64,000 bases of DNA from a virus, in the IMG/VR virus record IMGVR_UViG_3300028584_000098, positions 1 through 64,000 of that record, one strand, 5' to 3'. The position numbers and the translations under genes were made by a program. This document shows, piece after piece, positions 9,782-24,183 of this stretch. Positions within the stretch are counted from its first letter, which is position 1. Each line of letters opens with the position of its first letter. The notes under the pieces are model-generated. The model was given only the letters and a program-made list of their open reading frames with translations, was not told the origin of the DNA and made no database searches.

Positions 9782-10072
9782 CTATCCCGGTGCTTAGATA
9801 CGGCCGGAGGTACTATAGACAGCAACTTAGAGATAGCTTTTAGAGTAAGGCTAGGCCAAGTGTTTATGGGAAAGAAATCTAAGGTGTGTTTGCGGCACGC
9901 ACGACTCGTGACTGAGTAACGCTCCAGTTTAAGGGTATATTAGAACCCTGGGTGATGGTTGTTTCATCCAATGTCCGAGATAGGGCAAAACAACCACTTT
10001 CCGAGCGTGGAGGCGTGGGTATGGAAAGTAAGAGCGCTAGGAAGCAAGATCCTAGAACTGACGCCACAATAA

Positions 10073-10149
10073 GGGGGATTCGTCTAATTGGCCCAGGATA
10101 CCGGATTTTCGCTCCGGTGATGCGAGTTCGAGTCTCGTATCCCCTTCCA
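10073..10149 (+). tRNA. tRNA-Glu (TTC)
   Basis: Glu-type architecture: GGGGGAT-TC-GTC-TAATTGGCCCAGGAT-A-CCGGA-TTTTCGC-TCCGG, T arm GCGAG-TTCGAGT-CTCGT, CCA encoded. Confidence 0.85.
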
Positions 10150-10263
10150 TTGATAAACATGTAGTAGGTTACAGGGCTGATTACCTGTAGATTAATACCA
10201 TTAGTAGCTCGCTAAGAGACGCGGCTTAGCCACCTAGGGTCTACATGTTTTTCAATGGAATAC

Positions 10264-10339
10264 GTTGGTCTAGCTCATGGGGTAGAGCGGCAGGTTCCAA
10301 CCCTGCGCGAGGTGGGTTCGAGTCCTACGACCTTCGCCA
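10264..10339 (+). tRNA. tRNA-Trp (CCA) with two U:U mismatches in the acceptor stem
   Basis: D arm GCTC-ATGGGGTA-GAGC, anticodon arm GCAGG-TTCCAAC-CCTGC, T arm GTGGG-TTCGAGT-CCTAC. Acceptor GTTGGTC/GACCTTC. Confidence 0.6.
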
Positions 10340-10344
10340 ACAAT

Positions 10345-10420
10345 GTCACAGTGGCTCGAAAGATTAGGCTGGGGATTGCAACTCCCTATAATGTTGGTTT
10401 GAATCCAATCTGTGACTCCA
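10345..10420 (+). tRNA. tRNA-Cys (GCA)
   Basis: 76 nt with canonical numbering. Acceptor GTCACAG/CTGTGAC, anticodon arm GGGGA-TTGCAAC-TCCCT, T arm GTTGG-TTTGAAT-CCAAT, CCA encoded. Confidence 0.85.
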
Positions 10421-10648
10421 AGCCCCTACTAACCTTACTAGGGTTAGTACACATGCCTCGCTGTATAGTGCTAGGACCAGGATATAGGTCACGTCTACCT
10501 GATAGTACGCTCTACTATACTGCCAATCTAGTTTCTGTGCCAGCATAGTGGGCACGCCGGATGATAGTAACCGGCATTTTGATAAACGTATATTAGTGTG
10601 GACCTACGGGAGAAGCGCGACGCAAAAAACCTATACGTTTTTCAAAAG

Positions 10649-10736
10649 GGAGAGTTAACCGGCTGGGTGCTGGGACCGCTTGCTAAGCGAATCGAACCTT
10701 AACGGGTTTAGAGATCGAGACTCTAGCTCTCCTCCA
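10649..10736 (+). tRNA. tRNA-Ser (GCT), class II
   Basis: Acceptor GGAGAGT/GCTCTCC, loop TTGCTAA on a short stem, long variable arm, T arm TAGAG-ATCGAGA-CTCTA, CCA encoded. Confidence 0.65.
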
Positions 10737-10744
10737 TTTAGTTC

Positions 10745-10773
10745 TTGACTTTTGTTCCCTATTTTGTTATTAT
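10745..10773 (+). promoter_or_regulatory. sigma70-type promoter (family copy)
   Basis: TTGACT 10745-10750, 17 bp, TATTAT 10768-10773. Confidence 0.75.
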
Positions 10774-10792
10774 AAAGACTAAGGAGAACGGA

Positions 10793-10990
10793 ATGCTCAA
10801 AGTTTATATAGCAGCTACAGATGCTGGTTACGGTTATTTTGATAATGTTCTGTGGCTAGAGAATGGATCAGATAAGTTTCTTATTGAGTTCACGGAGTCT
10901 ACTGTTGCAAGATTTGAGACCTTGATGAGTGACGGTACCAAATTAGCTAAAATGCTTGGAATTGAATTGGAGCTTATCTATGTCAGCTGA
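10793..10990 (+). CDS. hypothetical protein (65 aa)
   Basis: ATG 10793 follows an AAGGAGA RBS and is in frame with track ORF 10745-10990, whose listed start lies inside the promoter. Confidence 0.6.
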   Translation: MLKVYIAATDAGYGYFDNVLWLENGSDKFLIEFTESTVARFETLMSDGTKLAKMLGIELELIYVS

Positions 10991-11144
10991 AATTATTGAC
11001 TTTGATCTAGCATATCAGCGTATTAAGGGTCCGATTGCCGCAATGGCATTTCGTAACCATCGTAATCTTCGTATGACACATCTTATTGTGAACGGAGTTT
11101 ACGTAGCAAAAGCAGATAAAGGTGGGCCTATGAAGGCGGCCTAA
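10980..11144 (+). CDS. hypothetical protein (54 aa)
   Basis: ATG 10980 overlaps the previous gene's end and is in frame with track ORF 10956-11144. Confidence 0.5.
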   Translation: MSAEIIDFDLAYQRIKGPIAAMAFRNHRNLRMTHLIVNGVYVAKADKGGPMKAA

Positions 11145-11223
11145 AGTTTAATCCGTCGTCTAAAGCTAGAAGACGCCTTTTAGGGTTGGATGTGAGAAGT
11201 CGATGCTCACCGGATTAACGAGA

Positions 11224-11296
11224 CGCGGGGTAGTGTAGGTGGATTTTGCACGACGGCCTCATAAGCCGTAGGAGGGGTTCGACTCCCCCGATCGCA
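11224..11296 (+). pseudogene. initiator-like tRNA-Met (CAT) with a broken 3' acceptor strand
   Basis: The 5' two-thirds are well formed: CGCGGGG-TA-GTGT...GCAC-G-ACGGC-CTCATAA-GCCGT, T loop TTCGACT. The 3' end CCCCCGATCGCA cannot pair with CGCGGGG. A homing-endonuclease cassette starts 16 nt downstream. Confidence 0.4.
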
Positions 11297-11311
11297 TCTC
11301 GAAAATATTTC

Positions 11312-11340
11312 TTGACATTTTAGCTGTACAGTGTTAAACT
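11312..11340 (+). promoter_or_regulatory. sigma70-type promoter, probably giving a leaderless mRNA
   Basis: TTGACA 11312-11317, 17 bp, TAAACT 11335-11340. The ATG at 11346 sits at the expected transcription start and has no SD. Confidence 0.55.
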
Positions 11341-11345
11341 TGTTT

Positions 11346-12065
11346 ATGTTTAAATGTCCATATTGTTCTAAACCTTTTAAGTTCTGGATTTCTGTTAGAG
11401 GGCACACAAGTAGCTGCGCTACAAATACTAAAGAATATTATATAGATAAACTATACGGTCCGTTACACTACACTATTTTTGATAGTAAGACAGATAGAGA
11501 AATTAGATCAGTTTATCCTAAGCTAAATTCTTTATCTGATATTAGACGTACTTTTAGAAATAAAAATATAGTAGTAAATATACTGGAGGGAGCTATAATT
11601 TCTAAGCAAGATATTATAGTGGCCATACAAGATTATTACTTTATACATGGTAGGATACCTCAAATACGAGATTTTTATCACTCTAAGTATCCTGGAATTA
11701 CAACTATAAGAGATAGATTTGGTTCCTGGAACGAAGCTATTAAAGCTGCGGGTTTTGAGCCTAATGAAAATGATGGGTTTGGTACAAGAACTATAGCAGA
11801 TGATGGTGTTCTATATAGAAGCCATTATGAAACTATGTTTGTAAATAGATTTCTTTTTAATAAAGAGATTTATGAGTACGAAGTAAAGTACCCAAATCAT
11901 AATAAATACTATGATTTTTATCTTCCAGAACGTGATATCTATATAGAAATAGATGGTGGTTGTAGGCCTGTTGTAATGGAAGAAAAGCTAAAAATCAATA
12001 AAGAATTAGGTAGAAATTTACTTGTCATTAAAGGTAATGAAATTGCTACTTTTAGTGGGTTCTAA
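11346..12065 (+). CDS. free-standing homing endonuclease, paralog 1 (N-terminal C2HC/C2H2-like finger, Vsr/DUF559-like PD-(D/E)XK C-terminus)
   Basis: MFKCPYCSKPF...HTSSC finger. FGSWNEAIKAAGF repeat typical of homing-endonuclease accessory domains. YDFYLPERDIYIEIDG nuclease-like block. In frame with track ORF 11331-12065. Confidence 0.6.
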   Translation: MFKCPYCSKPFKFWISVRGHTSSCATNTKEYYIDKLYGPLHYTIFDSKTDREIRSVYPKLNSLSDIRRTFRNKNIVVNILEGAIISKQDIIVAIQDYYFIHGRIPQIRDFYHSKYPGITTIRDRFGSWNEAIKAAGFEPNENDGFGTRTIADDGVLYRSHYETMFVNRFLFNKEIYEYEVKYPNHNKYYDFYLPERDIYIEIDGGCRPVVMEEKLKINKELGRNLLVIKGNEIATFSGF

Positions 12066-12187
12066 GGTTAGCCTCTAAATCGGCTCGCGTGGTCCTATGG
12101 TTAGGCCGCACCCGAGGGCGGAAGTAAAACACTTCGTTAAAAACGGGTTAGAGGCTTTCCGGTGAGCCTATCACCGGCCGGATTTAT

Positions 12188-12262
12188 TCTCATTAATGCA
12201 CAAGGTGTGCAGCCGAGCTGTTAACTCGTGTGAGCTAGGTTCGATCCCTAGAATGAGAGCCA
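12188..12262 (+). tRNA. tRNA-Asn (GTT)
   Basis: Acceptor TCTCATT/AATGAGA, D arm TGCA-CAAGGTG-TGCA, loop CTGTTAA, T arm CTAGG-TTCGATC-CCTAG, CCA encoded. Confidence 0.85.
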
Positions 12263-12273
12263 AAATTTAGTTC

Positions 12274-12302
12274 TTGACTTCAACCGCCCAATCGGGTATT
12301 AT
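12274..12302 (+). promoter_or_regulatory. sigma70-type promoter (family copy)
   Basis: TTGACT 12274-12279, 17 bp, TATTAT 12297-12302. Confidence 0.75.
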
Positions 12303-12315
12303 TAGAGGGTAGACA

Positions 12316-12516
12316 TTGAGCAGCACGGCAATCAACGCGAAGCTAATCTTCGAAAAAGAAGTATTCTTTCTAGAAGCACTGAAGCGGAAGCTAGACTCAA
12401 CTGAGTCTGACGATCCTACGGAAGTTCGTCTTGCGGAAGAAGCCTCATGGGACTATGATCTAATTATTGCCTATTTTAAAGGTCGAATTAAAGAATTTGA
12501 AAAGTTGATTTGCTGA
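12316..12516 (+). CDS. hypothetical protein (66 aa, TTG start)
   Basis: Track ORF. Its stop codon TGA 12514-12516 lies inside the first 5 nt of tRNA-His. Confidence 0.4.
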   Translation: MSSTAINAKLIFEKEVFFLEALKRKLDSTESDDPTEVRLAEEASWDYDLIIAYFKGRIKEFEKLIC

Positions 12517-12587
12517 CTTAGCTCACCCGGTTAGAGCGCTGGTTTGTGGAGCCAGAGAATAGGGTTCGAGTCCCTAAGTCAGTGCCA
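12512..12587 (+). tRNA. tRNA-His (GTG)
   Basis: Acceptor GCTGACT/AGTCAGT, D arm GCTC-ACCCGGTTA-GAGC, anticodon arm CTGGT-TTGTGGA-GCCAG, T arm TAGGG-TTCGAGT-CCCTA, CCA encoded. Confidence 0.8.
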
Positions 12588-12661
12588 AAATATTCAGGCT
12601 CTGTTTGAGAAGCTAGACAATCAGACTGTGACATTTTGTGGAAACACAGAAATCTGAATTA

Positions 12662-12908
12662 GGTATCCGGGTGGCGGATTTAATGATGCGAAACTTGGCA
12701 TCGCCAAAAACTAGGTGGCTCAGTCGTGGAGCCTTAATGATATTACGATCTGATATCGCCTGAAATATAGATACGCTGTATATGGATGCCGTAAGGTCAC
12801 AGTGCGAGGTTCGAATCCTCGGCAGCAGCAGGAGACGTTCTGCAAGTATCAAAATACGTTAGTATTTCAAGGATTGGTGGCCGTATGGCCTTAATGATGT
12901 GCATCGCC
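12662..12908 (+). repeat. three paralogous ~35-47-nt structured RNA modules (hairpin-UUAAUGAU-hairpin-CGCC)
   Basis: Copies lie at 12662-12705, 12714-12760 and 12876-12908. Each is GGT-[hairpin 1]-TTAATGAT-[GATxx...xxATC hairpin]-GCC. A T-loop-like hairpin CGAGG-TTCGAAT-CCTCG (12804-12820) lies between copies 2 and 3. Confidence 0.55.
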
Positions 12909-13097
12909 AACCATATTTCGCAAACAGCTAGGGCACACTTTAGTAGCTGTTTTCGTAATATGGTGGGAATAGGTCGAACAAAGAATAGAGCAATAGCCAT
13001 TGGATAAATAGACCTTAACAGGTTTACCAGTGTCGCCGGGTACCCAACCGGACCGAAAGGATAAACTTTATCTCCTGATAAATCATATTTTCAATAT

Positions 13098-13172
13098 CGG
13101 GCTGAACTCCTACGGTTGGAGAACTGATTGTCTATCAGTTAGCAGCGAGTTCGACTCTCGTCAGCCTGACCA
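13098..13172 (+). tRNA. tRNA-Asp (GTC)
   Basis: Acceptor CGGGCTG/CAGCCTG, D arm CTCC-TACGGTT-GGAG, anticodon arm ACTGA-TTGTCTA-TCAGT, T arm GCGAG-TTCGACT-CTCGT, CCA encoded. Confidence 0.8.
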
Positions 13173-13179
13173 CTCTTAT

Positions 13180-13252
13180 GGCCCCGCCGAGGTATTGCGG
13201 ACATGTCCCTACGAAGGACGTTGGTTGGGTTAGACTCCTAACGGGGCTTCCA
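13180..13252 (+). tRNA. tRNA-Arg (ACG)
   Basis: Acceptor GGCCCCG/CGGGGCT, anticodon arm TGTCC-CTACGAA-GGACG, T arm TTGGG-TTAGACT-CCTAA, CCA encoded. The D arm is short. Confidence 0.65.
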
Positions 13253-13364
13253 TATTTGCTACGGAATGGTACGGCCATTTTCTCCTGAGGAGGTGATTAA
13301 TCATTTGCCTCATTCTGTAGTTTCGGTGTCCGGTCGCCTACATTGGTGGGCTCCCCGGCTCCGC

Positions 13365-13404
13365 GCCCGCTCGGGCGATGCTGACGACCCGAGCGGGCTT
13401 TATT
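13365..13404 (+). terminator. intrinsic terminator-like GC hairpin
   Basis: GCCCGCTCGGG (13365-13375) pairs with CCCGAGCGGGC (13388-13398) and is followed by TTTATT. Confidence 0.6.
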
Positions 13405-13406
13405 AT

Positions 13407-13481
13407 GCACGTTAGTCCGAGTGGTGAGGGCCTGTCCTGATAAGACAGTGGTGCTGGGATCGAAACCCAGAGCGTGTACCA
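13407..13481 (+). tRNA. tRNA-Ile (GAT)
   Basis: Acceptor GCACGTT/AGCGTGT, anticodon arm CTGTC-CTGATAA-GACAG, T arm CTGGG-ATCGAAA-CCCAG, CCA encoded. Confidence 0.8.
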
Positions 13482-13488
13482 ATATTAT

Positions 13489-13564
13489 AGGCCTAGGCCC
13501 ATCTGAGAATGGGGAGCGACTCTTAATCGCTATGTTTAGGGTTTGAATCCCTTTAGGCCTACCA
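13489..13564 (+). tRNA. tRNA-Lys (CTT)
   Basis: 76 nt with canonical numbering. Acceptor AGGCCTA/TAGGCCT, D stem CCCA/TGGG, anticodon arm AGCGA-CTCTTAA-TCGCT, A73, CCA encoded. Confidence 0.85.
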
Positions 13565-13572
13565 AAAATTCT

Positions 13573-13661
13573 GGGTGAGTACCAAAGCGGCCGAATGGGG
13601 TAGACTTTTAATCTGCTTGTAGAAATACACATCATGGGTTCGAATCCCCTCTCACCCTCCA
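13573..13661 (+). tRNA. class II (long variable arm, Leu-like body) tRNA carrying anticodon UUU
   Basis: Acceptor GGGTGAG/CTCACCC, 3-bp D stem CCA/TGG, anticodon arm GTAGA-CTTTTAA-TCTGC, variable arm TGTA-GAAA-TACA, T loop TTCGAAT, U73, CCA encoded. Confidence 0.65.
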
Positions 13662-13673
13662 TAAGGAGAATTA

Positions 13674-13844
13674 ATGACATACAATATTAGATACAGCCCA
13701 GCAGGACGAGCACGAAATTCCCTGCTTACGGGTGGGGGGGCTCCTGCTGGCTTCTCGCGCACGACCTACAACGGCGTCGCGGTCACATACAACGGTCGGC
13801 CGGTCTTCGATGACGGCGCAAACTTTCTAGTGAGGGCCGCATGA
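13674..13844 (+). CDS. junction-spanning small protein (56 aa)
   Basis: AAGGAG 13663-13668, ATG 13674. The first ~9 codons are AT-rich backbone and the rest is high-GC (…TTYNGVAVTYNGRPVFDDG…). The stop overlaps the next start (ATGA at 13841). Confidence 0.5.
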   Translation: MTYNIRYSPAGRARNSLLTGGGAPAGFSRTTYNGVAVTYNGRPVFDDGANFLVRAA

Positions 13845-15421
13845 CCGAGTTCGTAAACGTCCTCTATGAGGTGGGCGTTCCGCGTGGCCTCCAAGGCTCA
13901 AACGCCTTCAATCTGGCTGACGCCGGGGCGGAGCTCAACTACTACATCGACGCCTCTACGGGTGTTGTCTCGCTGTCGCTGGCTGGTGGGACCAAGTACC
14001 ATCTGACCGGCTACATTGCCGTCAAACCGGGCGTCACCTATCGGCGTTTCAATGCTTCAGGCCCCATCGGATACTTCGACAGGAACCTGACTTGGATCTC
14101 CGGCGCGAGCCCCGGCACGACATTCACGCCGCCTGCTGACGCTGCATACGTGCGGATATCCATCGTTCGCAGCGCTTGGCGCAATTCCTGGCTGATCGTT
14201 AACGGCGGCGCGACCGTTTGGACCCCCTACGGAAACCGCATCGTCAATCAGGCGGTAAACCCGCTCCAGGTCGGCTATCTCCGCAACTCAAAATATCGGC
14301 TCGCAAAGCGACTGTTGCCGACGCCAGAGGCTGAGCGGATCATCATCAATGCAGCCGGAGACAGCTACACGCAGGCGCCAACCCGATGGACCGGCCCCTT
14401 CATGGATTACATGGCCGCGAAGTACGGCGATGGCGGCGGCGGCTGGTGCGGCTTCAGCTTCGCCTCAGCTGGAACGCCGCCCTACACCCTGGGTAACCAG
14501 CCCTCACTACTGAACGGCAATGTTCGACCCGCGACCTACCCGACCAAGGTGTACGGCTCGCCCACCGCCTCTTACGGCTCCAAGAACATGCCTGATATCA
14601 GCGCGATCACGCTGGCAGCGTCTGGCGACTACGTCTTTCAAGCCTTCCCCGCTACGCCGGTCCATAACGGTTGCGACCTGTTCTTTGAGGGCACATCCAA
14701 CGGCGTGGTCAAATACCGTTGGGGAACCTATGTGTCGGGCTCCGTCAGCGACCCGGCCAGCTATAGCTTTGGGTCTGATACGAATATCAACCTGCAAGGA
14801 GCGCTGGCTGCGACCCAAGTGGCGGACATCAAGACCGGCATGCCTAGCGGCGCGGGGGCGGTCATCGTTGAATGGGTCTCTGGCAGCTCCATCGTAAGCG
14901 GCGTCAACCTCAAGTCGGCGGCCAGCGGCGTAGTGGTCAACAAGCTGGCATGCAGCGGCTCTCAGGTCGCTAGTTGGACGAGCAAGACAGCCGCTCAATG
15001 GCAGGCGGGCATGACTGCCTTGGGCGGCGAACTCTTCGTCTTCATGGATGGTCCAAACAGCCAAGCCTCAACCATATTGCCCGCTGTCTGGCGTTCGTCG
15101 GTCGGGACGCTGATGACGCGCCTACGCACCGCGCTTCCCGCCTCAGACATCTTGCTGGCCACCCCGCCGGAGAACCAGCGCACCTACAACCGCATCAGCA
15201 TCCTGAGTTATCAGGTCGAGGCTGCGGCAGCGTCCATCGAGAACGCCTACACCCACTTGGACCTTCAAACGGCCTTCGGTGACGGCGGCAACGCTACCGA
15301 GTATGGCAGCGCCGGGATCGTCCCCTTGTTCAACGCCGACCTGCTGCATCCTGAACCCCTTACCGGCGGCAGGTTGCTCATGAAGGAGTTTGCGCGGGCC
15401 ATTGAGCCGATGGCCGCTTAG
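13841..15421 (+). CDS. SGNH/GDSL-family esterase with N-terminal lectin-like domain (tail-fibre/tailspike-type glycan esterase candidate)
   Basis: SGNH blocks appear in order: IINAAGDSYTQ (block I), GGGGWCGF (II), FMDGPNSQ (III), NADLLHPEP (V). The gene is high-GC and is the only long ORF with sensible composition in this island. Confidence 0.65.
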   Translation: MTEFVNVLYEVGVPRGLQGSNAFNLADAGAELNYYIDASTGVVSLSLAGGTKYHLTGYIAVKPGVTYRRFNASGPIGYFDRNLTWISGASPGTTFTPPADAAYVRISIVRSAWRNSWLIVNGGATVWTPYGNRIVNQAVNPLQVGYLRNSKYRLAKRLLPTPEAERIIINAAGDSYTQAPTRWTGPFMDYMAAKYGDGGGGWCGFSFASAGTPPYTLGNQPSLLNGNVRPATYPTKVYGSPTASYGSKNMPDISAITLAASGDYVFQAFPATPVHNGCDLFFEGTSNGVVKYRWGTYVSGSVSDPASYSFGSDTNINLQGALAATQVADIKTGMPSGAGAVIVEWVSGSSIVSGVNLKSAASGVVVNKLACSGSQVASWTSKTAAQWQAGMTALGGELFVFMDGPNSQASTILPAVWRSSVGTLMTRLRTALPASDILLATPPENQRTYNRISILSYQVEAAAASIENAYTHLDLQTAFGDGGNATEYGSAGIVPLFNADLLHPEPLTGGRLLMKEFARAIEPMAA

Positions 15422-15422
15422 A

Positions 15423-15451
15423 CCCCCACACCCCTACTCAGTTTGTGGGGG
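15423..15451 (+). terminator. hairpin immediately after the esterase stop (no U-tract)
   Basis: CCCCCACA (15423-15430) pairs with TGTGGGGG (15444-15451). Confidence 0.35.
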
Positions 15452-15529
15452 TGCTGGTCTCCCATCTGGCCCGATATTTGAGTCCAAGAGTTGCAGGCGG
15501 GACTTCGTTCATAGAGCGGAGTCCCGAAA

Positions 15530-15820
15530 ATGCACACCTTCTCACAAGCCGCCGCCAGCTACCTCGAACACGGCGGCGAGGCTCGATATCTCGCCCGCCT
15601 GGTCGAGCGCTTCGGCGCCGACGATGTGACCACGATCACGCCGATGGCGGTTCGAACCGCCGCGGTCGATCTCTATCCCGACGCCTCGCCTGCGACCCGC
15701 AACCGGCAGGGCATCACCCCGGCCCGCTGCGTCCTCTATCACGCCCATGAACTGGGCTGGCGCATGCCTGCGCCTGGCCAATTTCTTAAACTTATGAAAG
15801 TCAAGGATTATATAAAATAA
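15530..15820 (+). pseudogene. 5' stub of a tyrosine integrase gene (N-terminal SAM-like domain only)
   Basis: MHTFSQAAASYLEHGGEARYL...ITPMAVRTAAVDLYPDASPATRNRQGITPARCVLYHAHELGW resembles integrase N-termini. The reading frame leaves high-GC DNA at ~15,780 and ends 13 codons later in backbone sequence. No catalytic domain is present. Confidence 0.5.
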
Positions 15821-15823
15821 TTC

Positions 15824-15852
15824 TTGACTTTCACTGCCTAACATACTATACT
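15824..15852 (+). promoter_or_regulatory. sigma70-type promoter (family copy)
   Basis: TTGACT 15824-15829, 17 bp, TATACT 15847-15852. Confidence 0.8.
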
Positions 15853-15858
15853 ATTTAA

Positions 15859-16054
15859 ATCGAATATGAAATACTGATTGAAAAAACAGCGTAAGGGGTA
15901 ACGCCCTTCTGTTAGACTGCACAAAGTAAGGAGTCCTGCCCTGAAAATAAGCGCTAAGGGAATAAATAAGTGGCTTAGCGGCTGCAGATATAAGACCCAT
16001 GCATAGAATATCTGGCTTAGCGGCCTAATTTAATCAGTATCTCATATTTGATTC
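15859..16054 (+). ncRNA. ~195-nt structured leader RNA closed by a long-range helix; abuts tRNA-Gly
   Basis: ATATGAAATACTGATT (15864-15879) pairs with AATCAGTATCTCATAT (16032-16047). TGGCTTAGCGGC is duplicated (15971-15982, 16013-16024) around a CAGATAT/ATATCTG hairpin. No ORF. Confidence 0.5.
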
Positions 16055-16128
16055 GCGTCTTTCGTATAATGGTATTATCACAGCCTTCCAAGCTGAGGAC
16101 ACGGGTTCGATTCCCGTAGGACGCTCCA
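16055..16128 (+). tRNA. tRNA-Gly (TCC)
   Basis: TCGTATAATGGTATTATCACAGCCTTCCAAGCTGAGGA is close to my recollection of enterobacterial Gly(UCC). Acceptor GCGTCTT/AGGACGC, T arm ACGGG-TTCGATT-CCCGT, CCA encoded. Confidence 0.85.
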
Positions 16129-16136
16129 ATTTCTAC

Positions 16137-16213
16137 GCACCCGTCGTCAAGTGGTCCAAGACCGTGAGCTCATAACTCATTTATCACTGGTTCGAATCCA
16201 GTCGGGTGTACCA
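16137..16213 (+). tRNA. tRNA-Met or Ile2 (CAT)
   Basis: Acceptor GCACCCG/CGGGTGT, anticodon arm GTGAG-CTCATAA-CTCAT, T arm ACTGG-TTCGAAT-CCAGT, CCA encoded. Confidence 0.8.
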
Positions 16214-16238
16214 TATTTTCTTAACAAGGATACTGAAT

Positions 16239-16394
16239 ATGCGAACTGCTGTATATGATGAAGATGCTGTAGAGTTGTACGAAGATGGTACTCTTATTGA
16301 CACCCGGTACGTTGGTGATAAGAGTATTTACTGGATCGAAGATATGATCGAGAATTGGGAGTTAGGGTTAATTAATGCTGCGTTAGCTCAGTAG
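16239..16394 (+). CDS. small hypothetical protein (51 aa)
   Basis: ATG 16239 follows an AAGGA RBS and is in frame with track ORF 16206-16394. The last 6 codons and the stop (TAG 16392-16394) are encoded by the 5' end of tRNA-Thr. Confidence 0.45.
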   Translation: MRTAVYDEDAVELYEDGTLIDTRYVGDKSIYWIEDMIENWELGLINAALAQ

Positions 16395-16452
16395 GTAGAG
16401 CAACTCCTTTGTAACGAGAAGGTCGCCAGTTCGATTCTGGCACGCAGCCCCA
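16377..16452 (+). tRNA. tRNA-Thr (TGT)
   Basis: 76 nt with canonical numbering. Acceptor GCTGCGT/ACGCAGC, D arm GCTC-AGTAGGTA-GAGC, positions 34-36 TGT (weak anticodon stem), T arm GCCAG-TTCGATT-CTGGC, CCA encoded. Confidence 0.75.
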
Positions 16453-16460
16453 CTTTTTGA

Positions 16461-16532
16461 TGTTCTGGATATGGTTATCTCCCGCGGTCTCATAAGCTGC
16501 AGGATCGGGATCGAAACCCGATGGAACTCCCA
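16461..16532 (+). tRNA. atypical tRNA-like gene with CAT anticodon loop
   Basis: T arm TCGGG-ATCGAAA-CCCGA and CCA are good. Acceptor TGTTCTG/TGGAACT has a U1:U72 mismatch. The D hairpin GATA-TGGT-TATC is tiny. The anticodon stem extends to 9 bp (TCCCGCGGT/GCTGCAGGA). Confidence 0.4.
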
Positions 16533-16662
16533 AAAGTCTTTTGCCTTATAAAGTACGAGCCTGTTAGTGTCCATTGGAAGTGGGCTAATAGTGTCTTTCT
16601 AAGGGCCACACTAGCCCTGGATGATTCTGGTAGTGCGGGAGATAGTCACTTTATACCGCTAA

Positions 16663-16737
16663 GGACTTTTAGCTCAGTAGGTAGAGCGTCTGGTTGAAGC
16701 CCAGAAGGCCTCAGTTCAATTCTGAGAGGGTCCACCA
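16663..16737 (+). tRNA. tRNA-Phe (GAA)
   Basis: Acceptor GGACTTT/AGGGTCC, D arm GCTC-AGTAGGTA-GAGC, anticodon arm TCTGG-TTGAAGC-CCAGA, T arm CTCAG-TTCAATT-CTGAG, CCA encoded. Confidence 0.85.
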
Positions 16738-16739
16738 AA

Positions 16740-17447
16740 ATGAAATGTCCATATTGTAGTAAATTATTTAATTCCTGGAAATCAGTATCGGCTCATACAG
16801 CACACTGTTCTAGCAATTCGGGCGAGTACTATATACATAAAATTTATGGACCACTACATTATTCTACATTTAATACCTCTATAAAAGAAGTACGAGCACA
16901 ATATCCCTTAATTAACGATATATCTACAGTACTTAAAAACTTTGCTAAACGTAATATAGTAGTGGATTATACTCGTAGGCACCAGAGCCCTTCAGAACTG
17001 CTAGAAAATATTAGGATATTCTACAACAAATATAACAGAGTGCCTCAGTATAGAGACTTTTCAAATAACGTTCCACAATCTAAAGTATACGTTAGACGTT
17101 TTGGTTCCTGGAATGAAGCTATAAAAGCTGCTGGCTTTGAACCAAATGAAAACGATGGATTTGGTACTAGAACTATAGCTAATGATGGTGTGTTATATAG
17201 AAGTCACTACGAGACTATGTTTGTAAATAAGTTTCTATTTAACAAAGAGATTTATAAATACGAAGTAAAGTACTCAAGCCATAATAAATACTACGATTTT
17301 TATCTTCCTGAGCGTGACATTTATATTGAAATAGATGGAGGTTGTAGGCCTACTGTAATGGAAGAAAAGATTGAAATTAATAAAGAATTAGGTAGAAACT
17401 TATTTGTTATTAAAGGCAATGAAGTTGCTACTTTTAAAGGATTTTAA
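16740..17447 (+). CDS. free-standing homing endonuclease, paralog 2
   Basis: MKCPYCSKLF...HTAHC finger. The C-terminal ~115 aa are nearly identical to the 11346-12065 product. The ATG lies 3 nt after the CCA of tRNA-Phe, with no SD and no promoter. Confidence 0.6.
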   Translation: MKCPYCSKLFNSWKSVSAHTAHCSSNSGEYYIHKIYGPLHYSTFNTSIKEVRAQYPLINDISTVLKNFAKRNIVVDYTRRHQSPSELLENIRIFYNKYNRVPQYRDFSNNVPQSKVYVRRFGSWNEAIKAAGFEPNENDGFGTRTIANDGVLYRSHYETMFVNKFLFNKEIYKYEVKYSSHNKYYDFYLPERDIYIEIDGGCRPTVMEEKIEINKELGRNLFVIKGNEVATFKGF

Positions 17448-17537
17448 GGACGTGAACAGGTGTTCCAAGGGCCTTATACACCCTTTAGTCGGCAGATAAC
17501 CGATTTGGTCTGGTTTCGAGTACCAGTGCGTCTACCA
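17448..17537 (+). tRNA. 90-nt tRNA-like element (enlarged D arm, loop CAGATAA)
   Basis: Acceptor GGACGTG/TGCGTCT (wobble-rich), T arm CTGGT-TTCGAGT-ACCAG, A+CCA 3' end, D-like arm GGTGT-14 nt-ACACC, anticodon-like arm GTCGG-CAGATAA-CCGAT with A at position 33. Confidence 0.35.
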
Positions 17538-17559
17538 TTTTAACCAAAGGAAAAATTTA

Positions 17560-17790
17560 ATGACTGATATAACTGCATTTGTCGCTGCAATCGTAGGATT
17601 AGTGGTGCTGGTATTTTTAAGCCCTATTATTGCCGCCGGGTTTGGTGCACTAGCAGGCTGGCTAGTCGGTAGCGCGTTCGTAGGAACTGCAGCAACTGTT
17701 CTAGCTGTTACAGGACTTCAACCCTACCAGTGGGGCGCTATCCTAGCGTTTGCAGGTAGCTTCTTTAAGTCCTACTTACAACAAAAGTAA
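17560..17790 (+). CDS. small Gly/Ala-rich membrane protein
   Basis: Track ORF with two hydrophobic helices containing GxxxG-type spacing. Confidence 0.6.
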   Translation: MTDITAFVAAIVGLVVLVFLSPIIAAGFGALAGWLVGSAFVGTAATVLAVTGLQPYQWGAILAFAGSFFKSYLQQK

Positions 17791-17861
17791 GCCCCCGCCG
17801 AAGGAGCGGTACCGAGACTTCTAATCTTGGGAAACTGGTTCGATTCCAGTCGGGGGTGCCA
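17791..17861 (+). tRNA. tRNA-Arg (TCT), compact D arm
   Basis: Acceptor GCCCCCG/CGGGGGT, anticodon arm CGAGA-CTTCTAA-TCTTG, T arm ACTGG-TTCGATT-CCAGT, CCA encoded. Only 71 nt. Confidence 0.6.
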
Positions 17862-17867
17862 TTTCGT

Positions 17868-17941
17868 TCTGGATTCGTCTAATGGTAAGACGGTGGGCTT
17901 TGGTCCCGCAGATTGAGGTTCGATCCCTTGATCCAGAGCCA
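17868..17941 (+). tRNA. tRNA-Gln (TTG)
   Basis: Acceptor TCTGGAT/ATCCAGA (U1-A72 as in bacterial Gln), anticodon arm GTGGG-CTTTGGT-CCCGC, T loop TTCGATC, CCA encoded. Confidence 0.8.
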
Positions 17942-17944
17942 TCT

Positions 17945-18021
17945 CCAGGTATAGCTCAGCGTGTTAGAGTACTCCGTTTGGAGCGGAGGGGTCGTGAGTT
18001 CAAATCCCACTACCCGGACCA
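17945..18021 (+). tRNA. tRNA-Pro (TGG)
   Basis: Acceptor CCAGGTA/TACCCGG (one A:C mismatch), D arm GCTC-AGCGTGTTA-GAGT, anticodon arm CTCCG-TTTGGAG-CGGAG, T loop TTCAAAT, CCA encoded. Confidence 0.75.
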
Positions 18022-19387: not shown

Positions 19388-19966
19388 ATGGACTCAAAAA
19401 CTATTATAGATCAAGCGGGTAATCCCTTACTAATGGCAGGCCGTTTAGGCTCAGACGGTATTTTCCGTCCGGTTCACCACTCAGACGTTATCACTATTCA
19501 AACTGAAATTACCCGCCCAGCAGATACCGCTGCGTACCTTGCAGGCGATGCTATCGGAACAAGTGGTTCTGGTGTTATGAGTTTCAATATTGGTGCTCTT
19601 GGCCTAACAGCAGGGCTTATTGTTGGCGCTAGCTTAGTTCGTGACAAGGTAACAAACCCGGGAGTACGCTTTAGAGCTGCCATTCACGATGCTGCTATTG
19701 CCACAGCTCCGGCTGCTGATAATGCCCCAGCTCCTATGCTTTATGCCAATCGTGTGACTCGCCGTGGTTGGGTGGATTTCTTCACCTCAAACGCAGGCGT
19801 AGCCTCCGGGTCTAATGCACTAGAATATGCAGGTGTTCTTAGCAATCCACAAGGAATTGTTGTAGCTCCAAATGCTGGTATTCTATATTTAAGTCTACAG
19901 ACTTTAGATGCTTTCACTCCTGAAAGTGCTGGTAAGTTTATGATTGAGTTAGATATAGTAGTATGA
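19388..19966 (+). CDS. hypothetical protein (fibre cluster)
   Basis: ATG 19388 follows AAGGAA and is in frame with track ORF 19367-19966. Confidence 0.6.
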   Translation: MDSKTIIDQAGNPLLMAGRLGSDGIFRPVHHSDVITIQTEITRPADTAAYLAGDAIGTSGSGVMSFNIGALGLTAGLIVGASLVRDKVTNPGVRFRAAIHDAAIATAPAADNAPAPMLYANRVTRRGWVDFFTSNAGVASGSNALEYAGVLSNPQGIVVAPNAGILYLSLQTLDAFTPESAGKFMIELDIVV

Positions 19967-22302
19967 GTATGGCAGGAGCCGTTGCGGCGGCTATCCGCAA
20001 TACTAATTATTATAGTGATCTGTTTTCGGGAGGAGCTAGATTAGCCCTAGAGTTTGTTGGGACTAAAACAGGTAAGCCTTTTTACGGTTACGATAATAGA
20101 GTACTTAACTCCTACGCCAACATCCCCGGCTGGACCTTCACCCGCGCCTCAACGGGCTATGCGGAAGGGCTGGTTGACGACGTTGTGACCAACAAGGTTA
20201 CGGCTTGGAATGCCAACCCAACTGAAGCTGCTGGGTTTGTCGGCACTCCGTTTGGGATGCTCAAGGGCGGCGACGCGGCAGCGGTGCTGTCGGTAGTCAA
20301 CGACGTTGCTGCGTTGGCTGCTGCGGGCCTGTCGGGCGTCTGCACTTCCGGCAAGGTTTACAAGCTGGACAATACTGCGGGGAGTACGGCGGCATTCTGT
20401 AATACTGTCGGGCCATGCGGAAACACCAACAATCACTCGGTGTCTTCTTGGGCTAGGGGCGCTGCAGGTATTTTAGGGATTGGTGCGGGAGGCTCTACCG
20501 GCTTCGCGGCTTCTGGCCCGTATGTGCGGCGCACCCATGCCACGCCCGGTGTAGCCCCTAACTCCATGTTTATCGGGGCCAACGCCGGAGCCGTCGTCTA
20601 CTTCATCCTCCCCCAACTGATCGAGCGCCCCGCCGCTATCAGCCAAGACATTGTGACTGAAGGCGCTGCTGCGTCTGCTGTGGTCGGTCGGGTCAATGGA
20701 TACGTCTCGTTTGCATCGGGCGTTCCTGCAATTACCAGCAAAGGCCTGTCGGTGTGGGAAAGCCGTACTAACCTCTGCTTACAATCTAATACTCCATCTG
20801 ATGCATCATGGAACAAGAACGCTTGTTCTGTGGGTAGCGCGGTTCTCGGTCCAGATGCTGTCTTATCCGCGTATCCCATCACGGAGAGTACGGCAGGGTC
20901 TCTCCTGCGGAATATTACTGCAATCACAATTGCCTCTGGGTCAACGTACGCAATCAGCCGACTTGTTCGCCGGGGCAACTGCGACTGGATCCGTATACTG
21001 GCTGGCGACGACACCTCATTCACCAACAGTGTGCGCATCTGGTTCAATATGGCGACAGGAACAGTTGGCACTGCTGGCGTACTAGGCACTGGCTGGTCGT
21101 TCGCCAAGACTTCTGAAGTGACGGCGCTGGGCAATAGCTGGTATCGCGTCACCATGTTCGTGACGACTGGCGCAACCACCCTGTTCATCGGCAACTGCAC
21201 TGCAAACTCCGACAACACTACCAACCGCGCCGACGTCGGTGGCGGCTTTGGCGTGAATGCAGCGTACATTGTACACAACGCTGATGTTGAGCTTGGAGCA
21301 TTCCCTACTCCTCCGGTCATCACCACCACTGCCGCCGCAACCCGCGCTGCTGACAATGCCAGCATCACCGGGCTGGGCCCGCTCCTGGGGCAGTTCAGGA
21401 CGAACCTGCTGCTGCACTCAAACGATTTCGCTAATGCGGTCTGGCAAAAGGTAGCCCTCGGTAGTGGCGTAGCCCCAGTTCTGACTGCTGGTTTTGCAGA
21501 CCCGAACGGGGGTCTAGAGGCCACAAGGATCGTGTTTGATCGGGGATCTGGTACGACTGGCAACGACAGATCCAATATTAATCAGGACTATGGTGCCACC
21601 TCTGTATACACCTCTTCCATATGGCTGCGCGCAGACGCCCCAGTGCCTGTTAGTCTTCGCAGCCCCGCAAACACTGGCGGCCACACTACTATCAACGTTA
21701 CTACGGCGTGGCAGAGGTTTGAATTGTACGGAACGGCGACGCTCAGCTCAAACTTTCTGCTGGGCCTTCGCGGTGATCTAACGGCGAACAGTACCGCTAC
21801 GGTCTATGTTTACGGTGCCCAAGGTGAAACCGGCCCAGTCGCAACTCCGTACATCCCCACCACGACTGCTGCCGTCACGGTCGGCAACCCATTTACAATG
21901 GTGTCTTGGGGGGATTTGCCGGCGATTGATGGCACGGAAAGATATTTGGCAATTGCTCGGGACGCGGGCGGCGGGCTTGGCAATAATGTTTCGCTAAGGC
22001 GTTCTTCTGCAAACGCGGCGCGAATGACAGTTACAAATTCCGGTTCCGCTGTTGCTGTTAGTCCGCCGGGCGCTTTTGCGGGTGCCCTTACTATTAAGAG
22101 CGCAGGAAGGGTGCGTGTGGATGGTTTCGCGACCGCAGCTAATGGTTCGGCACTGGCTTCCGCCACACAAGCCGCCCCCGCTGTGTTGGCAACGCTATAT
22201 CTAGGCATAAACATAAATACGCAGTTCCTCAATGGCTACCTCCAGCGCGTCTTCATCTATGGCGATGTAGGCGATGCACAATTACAAAGGTTAACACAAT
22301 GA
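19963..22302 (+). CDS. mosaic tail-fibre / receptor-binding protein with two lectin-like repeats
   Basis: ATGA-coupled at both ends. About the first 50 and last 25 codons are AT-rich backbone and the ~2.1-kb core is high-GC. Two internal repeats begin NLCLQSNTPSDASWNK... and NLLLHSNDFANAVWQK... Confidence 0.65.
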   Translation: MSMAGAVAAAIRNTNYYSDLFSGGARLALEFVGTKTGKPFYGYDNRVLNSYANIPGWTFTRASTGYAEGLVDDVVTNKVTAWNANPTEAAGFVGTPFGMLKGGDAAAVLSVVNDVAALAAAGLSGVCTSGKVYKLDNTAGSTAAFCNTVGPCGNTNNHSVSSWARGAAGILGIGAGGSTGFAASGPYVRRTHATPGVAPNSMFIGANAGAVVYFILPQLIERPAAISQDIVTEGAAASAVVGRVNGYVSFASGVPAITSKGLSVWESRTNLCLQSNTPSDASWNKNACSVGSAVLGPDAVLSAYPITESTAGSLLRNITAITIASGSTYAISRLVRRGNCDWIRILAGDDTSFTNSVRIWFNMATGTVGTAGVLGTGWSFAKTSEVTALGNSWYRVTMFVTTGATTLFIGNCTANSDNTTNRADVGGGFGVNAAYIVHNADVELGAFPTPPVITTTAAATRAADNASITGLGPLLGQFRTNLLLHSNDFANAVWQKVALGSGVAPVLTAGFADPNGGLEATRIVFDRGSGTTGNDRSNINQDYGATSVYTSSIWLRADAPVPVSLRSPANTGGHTTINVTTAWQRFELYGTATLSSNFLLGLRGDLTANSTATVYVYGAQGETGPVATPYIPTTTAAVTVGNPFTMVSWGDLPAIDGTERYLAIARDAGGGLGNNVSLRRSSANAARMTVTNSGSAVAVSPPGAFAGALTIKSAGRVRVDGFATAANGSALASATQAAPAVLATLYLGININTQFLNGYLQRVFIYGDVGDAQLQRLTQ
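20112..22200. other. high-GC core (island 2) inside the fibre gene
   Basis: Line 21301 has 39/60 G+C. Long spurious ORFs run on both strands (for example 20598-21575 on the - strand). Confidence 0.75.
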
Positions 22303-22550
22303 CATGGAACTTAGCAATAATTGATAACCCAAAATTTGATACAGGGTACCACATTAACCTGCCCAACTATCTTCTTACAGAAGAACTAGGGCAATTCCAA
22401 GTGTTTCCCGAAACACCTAATGTGGTTTTCGCAGGACAGGAGACAGTATTCCTATCCTTTGAAAATGAGGCTCAAGCAATTGCAGCTTTACCCCAATATT
22501 GGATCGAAGAATATGTAACCGATGAGGAATTGGTAGAGCTTAGTGAATAA
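22299..22550 (+). CDS. hypothetical protein (possible fibre chaperone by position)
   Basis: Track ORF with ATGA coupling to the fibre gene. AT-rich backbone composition. Confidence 0.55.
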   Translation: MTWNLAIIDNPKFDTGYHINLPNYLLTEELGQFQVFPETPNVVFAGQETVFLSFENEAQAIAALPQYWIEEYVTDEELVELSE

Positions 22551-22556
22551 AAGTTC

Positions 22557-22585
22557 TTGACTTTAACTGGTTGATGGACTATACT
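22557..22585 (+). promoter_or_regulatory. sigma70-type promoter, tandem copy 1
   Basis: TTGACT 22557-22562, 17 bp, TATACT 22580-22585. Confidence 0.8.
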
Positions 22586-22589
22586 AAAT

Positions 22590-22628
22590 CAGAGGTGGAG
22601 AAGCCCTTCGGAGAATACTCCGCCTCTG
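22590..22628 (+). ncRNA. 39-nt hairpin RNA
   Basis: CAGAGGTGGAG (22590-22600) pairs with CTCCGCCTCTG (22618-22628). The inner loop contains C-TTCG-G. It starts about 5-7 nt after the -10. Confidence 0.5.
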
Positions 22629-22638
22629 AAAATAGTTC

Positions 22639-22667
22639 TTGACTTTAACTGGTTGATGAACTATACT
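22639..22667 (+). promoter_or_regulatory. sigma70-type promoter, tandem copy 2
   Basis: TTGACT 22639-22644, 17 bp, TATACT 22662-22667. The ~37 bp around it are near-identical to copy 1. Confidence 0.8.
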
Positions 22668-22674
22668 ATATAAA

Positions 22675-22746
22675 TCGACACATTAGATAAGACATTAGTC
22701 AGCATATTCTCACGAATCCACTGCTACAGAGTATCTAATGTGTCGA
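22675..22746 (+). ncRNA. 72-nt RNA closed by a perfect 15-bp terminal helix
   Basis: TCGACACATTAGATA (22675-22689) pairs with TATCTAATGTGTCGA (22732-22746). It is not a cloverleaf. Confidence 0.5.
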
Positions 22747-22755
22747 AAATAGTTC

Positions 22756-22784
22756 TTGACTTTAGTTACTTAAAAGTCTATAAT
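22756..22784 (+). promoter_or_regulatory. sigma70-type promoter, tandem copy 3
   Basis: TTGACT 22756-22761, 17 bp, TATAAT 22779-22784. Confidence 0.8.
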
Positions 22785-22808
22785 ATCTAAAGCGACATAT
22801 TAAATAAA

Positions 22809-22876
22809 GCATGAGACGCGTTTCGTGGGGGGAGTCCAGCTAGTGCAACTGGATGAGGTTCAATTCCTCCTCATGC
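22809..22876 (+). ncRNA. tRNA-like domain at the 5' end of the large RNA
   Basis: Perfect 7-bp acceptor GCATGAG/CTCATGC, T arm GAGG-TTCAATT-CCTC, arm TCCAG-9 nt-CTGGA. No variable loop and no CCA. Confidence 0.45.
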
Positions 22877-23690
22877 TTTACTTTATATGCCGCGTGCGGC
22901 AAGAGGTTACGTGAGTAACTGACAGGGGAGGCTCCCATAGCCCTTCCCGACCTCGCAAGAGGCCAAAGCACGCAGATTGGGCTAGCAGGAGAGACCCTGA
23001 GCTTCCGAGAGGGAGACGAATCTAGAAGGTATGCCTAAAGAGTCGGGTCTGGGTAACTCCGGGACTTGGTCTGCTCGTCGCAAGCGAGATAGGGGTGCAA
23101 CATTCCGATAGAGGAGCTGCTAACAATCGAGAGTACGTTATAGTTCGAGTCCCGCAGACAAGAGCGCGTATCAAAGCACTAGGGAACTGGTTATACAAGG
23201 GCGAAAGTTCTTGTAGCGTCAATATGTCCTAGCGTTTAGTCTAGTAGGCCGCAAACCGAAAGATATTGAGGTGTGTTGTATTTCGCTCCCAAAAGGAACC
23301 GAAGCAACTGGACTGGCACATCTCCGTGGGTTGCAAAAATTTCATTTGGATTGAAAATCAATAAACGCAAAAGACTGGTCCGGTACATGGTGTAAGTAGC
23401 CAAATACTTCAGCGTAAGCAATGAAGTCATGGAGAGGCCGCAAGCTAATTCATGTTGGTTGGGAAGGTTTCATAGGAAGTTAGCGCTTTCGAATGGCTCG
23501 CAAGGTCAGTGGGAATAGAACAGCCGAGTAATCATGTATGACAGAGTAAATGCTAGCTCTTTAAATCTAGCGGCTATGGCGAAATAGAGAATACTTTCTC
23601 TGGACACGTATAAACCCTCCGGGTCGCACTGGGTGTGGAATTATATACTAAGGTTCGTCGTACTAAGCGGTAATCTCACGCTTATCAATA

Positions 23691-23720
23691 AGGCCGTCAC
23701 TTCCTGTGACGGCCTTTTTC
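23691..23720 (+). terminator. intrinsic terminator
   Basis: AGGCCGTCAC (23691-23700) pairs with GTGACGGCCT (23706-23715) and is followed by TTTT. Confidence 0.8.
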
Positions 23721-23733
23721 ATTAGGAAGACTC

Positions 23734-24183
23734 ATGTTAGAAGATGCAAAAAAAGCAATAGCTGCAAGTTCAAAAGAAAGCTCTGTCTATATTGGTAGCG
23801 ACTCAATTCGCTTCAAGAAAGCTGGAGTTTGGTACGCCCGATATTCAACAGTCGTAATTCTTCACCTAGACTCTAAGCACGGCTGTAAACTATTTCATAG
23901 CACAGAAACCATGCGAGACTATGGTTCGATGAAGCAGAGACTCCTGACAGAAGTTTCGTACACAGTAACACTAGCTCTAGAATTACTAGAGGTAATCGGT
24001 GAACGCCACTTGGAAGTTCACCTTGACCTTAACGCTAATCCTCGGCATAAATCTAACGTAGCCGTTAAGGAAGCACTAGGATTCTGCCATGGTAGTCTAC
24101 CTGGAGTACAAGTAGAGATTAAACCTAACGGATGGGCTGCATCTTCTTGTGCAGATCATCTAGTACGCGGTAAGCTCCAATAA
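23734..24183 (+). CDS. RNase H-like protein of the YkuK/DUF458 type
   Basis: The pattern YIGSDS ... VVILH ... LEVHLDLN ... S matches my recollection of the DUF458 fold family. Confidence 0.45.
   Translation: MLEDAKKAIAASSKESSVYIGSDSIRFKKAGVWYARYSTVVILHLDSKHGCKLFHSTETMRDYGSMKQRLLTEVSYTVTLALELLEVIGERHLEVHLDLNANPRHKSNVAVKEALGFCHGSLPGVQVEIKPNGWAASSCADHLVRGKLQ

Follow-up and report, generated by a model that had tools for sequence, protein, structure and literature searches.

The window analysed here, a 64,000-nucleotide (nt) stretch of viral DNA (positions 1 to 64,000 of IMG/VR record IMGVR_UViG_3300028584_000098; all coordinates are window positions), very probably carries on its plus strand a locus for a full-length GOLLD RNA, transcribed from tandem sigma-70-type promoters and ended by an intrinsic terminator, in a genome that, judged by its genes, is that of an uncultured T5-like phage. 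GOLLD, a family known since 2009, is among the largest non-coding RNAs of bacteria and phages, and its structure was solved in 2025. An earlier interpretation, made from the letters of the window (hereafter the sequence-only reading), had proposed that this locus encodes a large RNA that could be a member of the GOLLD or ROOL class or represent a new one. It is a genuine non-coding RNA of a known family: because the locus gives a full-length GOLLD match above the curated threshold, the membership branch of that proposal is right, for GOLLD and not for ROOL, and the new-class branch is wrong.

The whole window was scanned with Rfam 15 at gathering scores, and positions 22500-23900 were rescanned permissively, at E values of up to 1. 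GOLLD (RF02032) was the sole non-tRNA match above threshold in the whole window: positions 23268-23682 on the plus strand score 169.8 bits against a gathering score of 150 (E = 6.6e-46) and cover the model end to end (positions 1-416 of 416). The comparison with large-RNA families, which the sequence-only reading had put forward as a check, returned no other member in this region, with no match in 22500-23900 to ROOL, HEARO, raiA, OLE, group I or II introns, RNase P or transfer-messenger RNA (tmRNA) even in the permissive rescan, whose only hit besides GOLLD was a weak match to the tRNA-Sec model. Since accepted GOLLDs from related phages score between 158 and 190 bits, the score of the window GOLLD is typical for its clade.

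GOLLD RNAs comprise a 3′ region that is universally conserved and a 5′ region that is less so (PMC12286853; PMC12990946), and RF02032 spans the conserved 3′ domain only, not the 5′ domain. The family signatures of the 3′ domain are all present: the CAAAAG loop of P14, the GCAAAAG junction, the long-range stem with GAGUA (23527-23531) and the end loop GUAAUCUCA, which is invariant across all 5 aligned GOLLDs. Hairpins P21a and P21b both occur, as in env-38, a GOLLD of solved structure to which the loop and bridge names below refer, and neither ARAGORN nor Rfam finds an embedded tRNA in the linker that follows P14 (23326-23365). The features of the 3′ domain, taken from the model alignment except where another source is given, are as follows.

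23268-23682 (+): conserved 3′ domain of GOLLD (P14-P27), 415 nt (RF02032 match)
23290-23295 (+): L14 loop CAAAAG, A-rich; bridge B6 in env-38 (also PMC12286853)
23326-23365 (+): A/U-rich variable linker from P14 to the remainder of the 3′ domain (unaligned insert in the model alignment)
23366-23376 (+): conserved junction CGCAAAAGACU (J13/15) (also PMC12286853)
23383-23391 (+): 5′ strand of the long-range stem of the 3′ domain, with its partner at 23531-23539 (bracketed stem of the model)
23439-23444 (+): L20 loop CGCAAG
23480-23485 (+): L21a loop UUAGCG, with an internal self-complementary GC at 23483-23484; symmetric kissing bridge B8 in env-38 (also PMC12286853)
23498-23504 (+): L21b loop UCGCAAG, whose GCA at 23500-23502 equals G675-C676-A677 of env-38, bridge B9 (also PMC12286853)
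23531-23539 (+): 3′ strand of the long-range stem, right after the conserved GAGUAA
23670-23678 (+): L27 terminal loop GUAAUCUCA, the most conserved sequence signature of GOLLD

Transcription unit and coding potential

Sequence scans bear out the description of the locus as a gene-free stretch of ~930 nt with its own promoter and terminator. The promoter originally assigned to it is the third of three tandem copies, and the terminator is of the canonical form that had been described.

22557-22585 (+): promoter copy 1, TTGACT-17-TATACT, 10/12 consensus, with the phage box AGTTCTTGACTTTA just before it (promoter scan)
22589-22629 (+): hairpin after promoter 1, without a U-run, −21.9 kcal/mol, z −5.2 (fold against shuffles)
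22639-22667 (+): promoter copy 2, TTGACT-17-TATACT (promoter scan)
22675-22746 (+): second leader hairpin, 15-base-pair (bp) outer stem, without a U-run, −27.2 kcal/mol, z −6.8 (fold against shuffles)
22756-22784 (+): promoter copy 3, sigma-70-type, TTGACT-17-TATAAT, 11/12 consensus (promoter scan)
23690-23721 (+): intrinsic terminator, an 11-bp stem at 23690-23716 (7 G-C pairs, 5-nt loop) followed by TTTTT (terminator scan)

The box AGTTCTTGACTTTA occurs nine times in the window, always on the plus strand, against 0.9 occurrences expected, and three of the copies stand in tandem at 22552-22784. As the hairpins after the first two promoters have no U-run, all three promoters could feed the GOLLD unit; the hairpins at 22589-22629 and 22675-22746 might themselves function as small leader RNAs, as sites of processing or as stabilisers of the 5′ end. 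Promoter spacing, the only guide used, would place the transcription start near 22790-22792. Transcription from one to three of the promoters, stopping at the intrinsic terminator, would then yield a primary transcript of ~930 nt from the proximal promoter, composed in order of a degenerate tRNA-like leader, a 5′ domain of ~380 nt and the 3′ domain of 415 nt.

The region had been said to hold no plus-strand open reading frame (ORF) of 60 amino acids (aa) or more, and this is true between 22551 and 23733, where the longest such frame has 45 aa. It is flanked on the same strand by an 83-aa ORF ending at 22550 and a 149-aa ORF starting at 23734; its minus strand holds chance ORFs of 66 and 64 aa. 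The relatives keep no reading frame outside the P14 stretch, where the nucleotide sequence itself is conserved. Given the lack of a plus-strand ORF of at least 60 aa and of a conserved frame, a coding function of the region was rejected. The G+C content also exceeds that of the backbone, as had been estimated from two lines of sequence, with 0.479 for 22790-23690 against 0.423 for the whole window; it is 0.523 in the 5′ domain and 0.448 in the 3′ domain, and the tail gene just upstream is still more G+C-rich, at 0.55-0.61.

The 5′ domain and the tRNA-like leader

Covariation with homologues supports a structured 5′ domain upstream of the RF02032 match. The closest relative found is L004, a tRNA-rich phage contig from IMG/VR (UViG_3300047476_001386, 71 kb, 26 tRNAs; 3′ domain at 12031-12431), which aligns with the 5′ region of the window over 378 of 389 positions (nhmmer, E = 3.7e-10). 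In a two-sequence RNAalifold structure of the window and L004, 25 of the 67 pairs are altered on both sides yet kept. The 5′ domains of the other loci (~385-390 nt) are mutually alignable, and an iterated nhmmer profile of the DSS3-type 5′ domains recovers DSS3_MAL1 (E = 1e-52), then window positions 23139-23266 (E = 4e-11) and L004 (E = 1e-11).

A covariation test, likewise suggested at the outset, was made on a MAFFT alignment of 11 sequences (the window, L004 and nine other homologues). Its consensus structure comprises 12 helices with 51 pairs in total, of which 42 have both partners changed. Standard pairs fill 85.9% of the cells, a share that drops to 36-39% in controls whose 3′ partners were moved by 1-3 columns; the same controls have a covariation score of 0.10-0.14, compared with 0.642 for the unshifted structure; and none of 500 shuffles equals any observed pairing or covariation value. 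The structure was drawn from the same alignment on which it is scored, which introduces some favouring bias, yet the margin is large. The window sequence forms 39 of the 51 consensus pairs as aligned, and 44 of 51 when helix 7 (23133-37/23168-72) is shifted by one column, a fit that was read by hand and not by a tool. Single-sequence folds are uninformative on the architecture, with a z of −1.6 for the minimum-energy fold of the lone 5′ domain and −3.0 for the full transcript. The helices below were assigned by RNAalifold and pair counts.

22889-23267 (+): GOLLD 5′ domain, variable, ~380 nt (also nhmmer and family profile)
22889-91/22898-900; 22906-10/22915-19 (GUGA loop); 22925-28/22943-46 (+): first helices of the 5′ domain
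22906-22919 (+): conserved 5-bp hairpin with the GNRA tetraloop GUGA (11-sequence alignment)
22976-84/23121-31; 23007-12/23105-10 (+): next two helices
23133-37/23168-72; 23143-46/23162-65; 23174-77/23234-37; 23180-83/23227-30 (+): helices further 3′
23239-41/23262-64; 23247-49/23255-57 (+): last helices

In the hairpin at 22906-22919, all five stem pairs covary and the loop is of the GNRA type in 10 of the 11 aligned rows. By its position this loop would correspond to the GAAA loop of env-38 (G33-A35), which makes the A-minor bridge B1 to a neighbouring chain (PMC12286853 Supplementary Table 2).

The smaller motifs that the sequence-only reading had pointed out fared unevenly. The pentamer CGCAA, counted there five times, has six copies (22954, 23079, 23250, 23366, 23439 and 23499), and the four copies in C-GCAA-G context stand: this 0.9 kb holds four CGCAAG, while elsewhere in the window the hexamer has a density of 0.08 per kb. 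Of two supposed C-GAAA-G loops, the one at 23202 caps, as a GAAA tetraloop, a hairpin specific to the window, and that at 23257 is a conserved junction before P14 and not a hairpin loop. The segment GTTCGAGTC at 23143, taken for a T-loop, is actually the 5′ strand and loop start of the conserved helix 23143-46/23162-65. A long-range helix between CGGGACT at 23060-23066 and AGTCCCG at 23148-23154 was rejected: the complementarity is present, but chance alone would give about 26 complementary 7-mers of this kind in 930 nt (by our own arithmetic, not by a tool), the pairing is not kept in L004, and it competes with the same conserved local helix.

Between the predicted transcription start and the 5′ domain lies the element that had been described as a tRNA-like domain.

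22807-22878 (+): degenerate tRNA-like leader, ending 10 nt before the 5′ domain (weak tRNA-Sec match; cloverleaf drawn by hand)

A cloverleaf can be drawn here, but there is no firm call, the match to the tRNA-Sec model reaching 24.8 bits against a gathering score of 47 (E = 0.034). The hand-drawn cloverleaf has an acceptor-type stem of 7-9 bp, a 4-bp T stem with a canonical UUCAAUU loop, an anticodon-type stem of 6 bp with a 9-nt loop, and a mini D arm whose 3-nt loop lacks GG; the cloverleaf also has a 6-nt spacer and lacks a variable loop. Judged as a tRNA, it lacks the D arm with GG, the 7-nt anticodon loop with U33 and the 7/5 stack of acceptor and T stems, and in this hand reading its tRNA-like parts are limited to the acceptor stem and the T loop. 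The leader folds modestly better than shuffles (z −2.2) and, compared with all 19 tRNAs of the phage, is not detectably derived from any of them.

In other GOLLDs, tRNAs occupy comparable places. A tRNA-Thr in locus L014 ends ~6 nt before the 5′ domain, env-38 is located downstream of a tRNA-Met (PMC12286853), and seven DSS3-type GOLLDs hold a complete tRNA (Arg, Ile, Leu, Pro or Asn) in the linker right after P14: L001 (3090-3165), L013, L015, L017, L019, L020 and L021. The window, in contrast to these seven and to L014, has neither a linker tRNA nor an abutting one, just the degenerate leader. Because tRNAs sit upstream of or within GOLLDs in L014, env-38, the Vibrio phages vB_ValS_X1 and PG07 and the seven linkers, we infer that the leader derives from a tRNA gene that has decayed but may still be a handle for RNase P or tRNA 3′-end processing. 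Cleavage there would release the GOLLD 5′ end, a function that the tRNAs flanking or embedded in other GOLLDs would also have.

Probable cage assembly and alternative readings

In cryogenic electron microscopy structures, the cage of env-38 GOLLD contains 14 chains and no protein, and that of Streptococcus agalactiae GOLLD is a 12-mer; the chain number depends on the set of helices present (PMC12286853; PMC12990946). By inspection, the window RNA keeps the motifs of bridges B6 (L14), B7 (J13/15-L20), B8 (L21a) and B9 (L21b), and with four sets of env-38 3′-domain contact motifs kept in its sequence, cage assembly is likely; the RNA probably self-assembles, with 10-14 copies to a cage. The mapping onto env-38 is approximate and at the level of motifs: the text copy of env-38 has 816 nt instead of 833, and a residue-numbered mapping was dropped for that reason. 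For B7, the GC of J13/15 (23367-23368) could pair with the GC of L20 (23440-23441) in a kissing interaction. By homology with the env-38 and S. agalactiae structures, a mature RNA of ~800 nt would fold into two domains, and 10-14 such chains would then build a protein-free dihedral cage joined by A-minor contacts and by kissing loops (L14, J13/15 with L20, L21a and L21b). Our leading guess is that the cage has a role linked to the tRNA and translation programme of the phage. Published hints for GOLLD are an expression that rises during lysis, a ribosome pull-down and the embedded tRNAs (PMC12286853; PMC12990946).

Several observations weigh against parts of this picture. Loop L24 reads UACU in the model alignment by our own reading, and the L24 of env-38 supplies two adenosines for bridge B10; as L24 is not A-rich in the window, B10 is doubtful and the contact may be missing. 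The oligomer number varies among GOLLDs (10, 12 or 14) and is not predictable from sequence (PMC12990946). The central part of the 5′ domain (~23013-23104) aligns poorly with the DSS3-type family. The leader lies below threshold for every tRNA model, with no RF00005 match and no ARAGORN call, and it has no counterpart directly upstream in L004, the closest relative.

Other roles were considered, one of which involves the gene that follows GOLLD.

23734-24183 (+): RNase H-like gene (PF04308, E 7.5e-20; PHROG 11311), starting 13 nt past the terminator (profile match)

From the GOLLD terminator to the ATG at 23734 no promoter-like site occurs, and a promoter box comes next at 24187. Lacking its own promoter, the gene would depend for expression on read-through from the GOLLD promoters alone, and GOLLD might mainly be a giant cis-acting leader whose folding or assembly sets read-through into, or translation of, the RNase H-like gene; L004, which keeps the order of GOLLD, terminator and RNase H-like gene with 68% protein identity, fits such a coupling. 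We nevertheless consider a mainly cis-acting function quite unlikely. The terminator looks strong, the solved GOLLDs are free-standing particles (PMC12286853), tRNA genes and not an RNase H-like gene come after GOLLD in the T5-like Vibrio phages, and the RNase H-like homologue of L014 and L015 lies 1.6-1.7 kb further downstream, past tRNAs. The adjacency may be plain synteny of two related phages, and we treat it as such; in GOLLD-carrying roseophages, the RNase H-like homologues lie elsewhere.

Another conceivable role is that of a tRNA-handling device, an ‘inhibited storage’ in which the cage would hold or hide tRNA-like cargo, be it the leader or phage tRNAs, and delay tRNA maturation or cleavage. 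GOLLDs are located in tRNA islands, many with a tRNA in an inward-pointing linker (PMC12990946), and the window GOLLD carries its tRNA-like leader. However, the window linker holds no tRNA, and the leader is joined to the 5′ domain instead of the inward-pointing linker and is not a recognisable tRNA, which leaves storage very unlikely here. The degenerate leader, the departure of the L24 contact loop from consensus and a score just ~20 bits over the threshold could also be read as marks of a decaying GOLLD pseudogene, carried along with the tRNA region after its function was lost. Against this stand the match to all 416 model positions, pairing kept in the helices through compensatory changes relative to L004 and nine other homologues, the intact consensus promoters and terminator, and the similar scores that are normal in the clade; decay is extremely improbable.

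Within the preferred reading of the locus as a GOLLD gene, a more specific variant can be put forward tentatively, although we think it unlikely to hold. The window and L004 would represent a compact GOLLD subtype with no linker tRNA and with central 5′ hairpins of its own that carry CGCAA loops; in the window, the tRNA would have been reduced to an acceptor/T-arm handle fused at the 5′ end, and terminator read-through would couple the unit to the RNase H-like gene. If this were so, RNA cage and nuclease would form a functional module, and stoichiometry or cargo might differ from those of env-38.

Genomic context and known GOLLD RNAs

The genome is assigned to a T5-like phage by its replication genes, which match those of T5-like phages best; the DNA polymerase shares 46-49% identity with Demerecviridae homologues from Vibrio, Proteus and Erwinia phages. 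The window also encodes a DnaB-like helicase, an NAD-dependent ligase, an SbcC-like protein and tail proteins. ARAGORN finds 19 tRNA genes at 7288-18021. Positions 9697-9778 hold a second tRNA-Sec-like element below threshold (31.9 bits; gathering score 47), and Rfam tRNA matches at 11225-11296 and 13489-13561 have no ARAGORN call; in addition to its 19 clear tRNA genes, the phage seems to have several tRNA-like ones that are odd or decayed. ORFs resembling tail fibres or tail proteins, at 13841-15421 and 19963-22302 (G+C 0.52-0.62 in the latter), lie among or just after the tRNA genes, upstream of GOLLD, a location where a T5-like layout would not usually have structural genes. An alpha-type permuted tmRNA is found near the tRNA/GOLLD region in L001 (DSS3_MAL1; 3552-3968), L004 (749-1101) and L014 (8209-8581); none was found in the window.

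Megablast against 50,697 phage records gave no close DNA relative, and in a distant blastn search the sole match to a deposited phage was the 85-nt P14 stretch of Bacteriophage DSS3_MAL1, whose GOLLD carries a tRNA-Arg in its linker. A pattern derived from P14 retrieved 13 IMG/VR loci, among them L004. Of the patterns aimed at closer relatives, the one beginning GCCGCAANCCGAAAGAYAT gave 0 matches, and GGCAAGAG-N5-GTGA-N5-TGACAG matched only L004 in IMG/VR and had 12 hits in metagenome contigs, all by chance. A scan of genome contigs yielded five contigs of metagenome-assembled genomes with DSS3-type GOLLDs, none closer to the window, and for the downstream protein nothing was found by exact look-up or by a pattern-based IMG/VR search. 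By these searches of phage, IMG/VR, metagenome and genome collections, none of which yielded a close copy, the window GOLLD is a new and divergent sequence.

The published GOLLD alignment includes the T5-like Vibrio phages vB_VpS_PG07, vB_ValS_X1, VspSw_1 and others, roseophages, and Caulobacter and Mycobacterium phages; GenBank record MW824424.1 (70E35.6) annotates an ncRNA ‘GOLLD’. GOLLD is thus already recorded in T5-like Vibrio phages and roseophages, and the window adds a divergent member, from a T5-like phage, with cleanly marked transcript ends. Together with its relatives it gives comparative support to helices of the little-studied GOLLD 5′ domain, and the tRNAs or tRNA remnants directly 5′ of GOLLD or within its linker bear on RNA processing. 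It reveals no new kind of biology, and cultured GOLLD-carrying Vibrio phages are better experimental systems than the uncultured phage of the window.

Among the individual relatives, L004 shares with the window the terminator and RNase H-like gene directly 3′ of GOLLD, and the identity between window and L004 is ~70%, a value that refers to the alignable parts only. Its promoter, TTGACT-17-TATAAT at 11191-11219, is separated from the 5′ domain by ~470 nt (11230-11690) with several hairpins and no ORF or tRNA, which is unlike the window, and the tRNA-like leader is missing there; the segment 11230-11690 may extend the 5′ domain or be a separate RNA. L004 also differs from the window in carrying a tmRNA.

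The T5-like Vibrio phages (Pogseptimavirus: vB_ValS_X1, PG07 and VspSw_1; also 70E35.6) are of the same phage type as that of the window. Their GOLLDs score 176-190 bits with the Rfam model and lie in or beside the tRNA region. A tRNA-Gln lies upstream in two of the three that were fetched (vB_ValS_X1 and PG07), none being called in 70E35.6; it is ~640 nt from the 3′ domain in vB_ValS_X1 and PG07, compared with ~390 nt from the leader in the window. Their 5′ domains can be aligned with that of the window only over the last ~150 nt. The roseophage and marine GOLLDs (DSS3_MAL1, MN602268 7420-7883; DSS3P8; MD18; IMG/VR loci L012-L023) share with the window the P14 sequence GGUGUGUKGUAUUU...GCACAUCU, 5′ domain helices and the GNRA hairpin, as well as an RNase H-like family in the same phages. 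They differ from it in the linker tRNA that most of them hold and in the central part of the 5′ domain; the phages of this group are ~150 kb in size, and several encode a tmRNA.

ROOL resembles GOLLD as a large ornate RNA of phages and prophages that lies near tRNA genes and forms RNA-only cages (PMC12286853). It is unrelated to GOLLD in sequence and secondary structure, and the window holds no ROOL match at the gathering score. Of the GOLLDs with solved structures, env-38 (PDB 9MEE, 833 nt, 14-mer) and that of S. agalactiae (12-mer) have 5′ domains unrelated to that of the window at the level of primary sequence. The two-domain layout is nevertheless common to all three, as are the 3′ motifs L14 CAAAAG, J13/15 with L20, L21a, L21b and GUAAUCUCA, and env-38 and the window both have a GNRA hairpin near the 5′ end.

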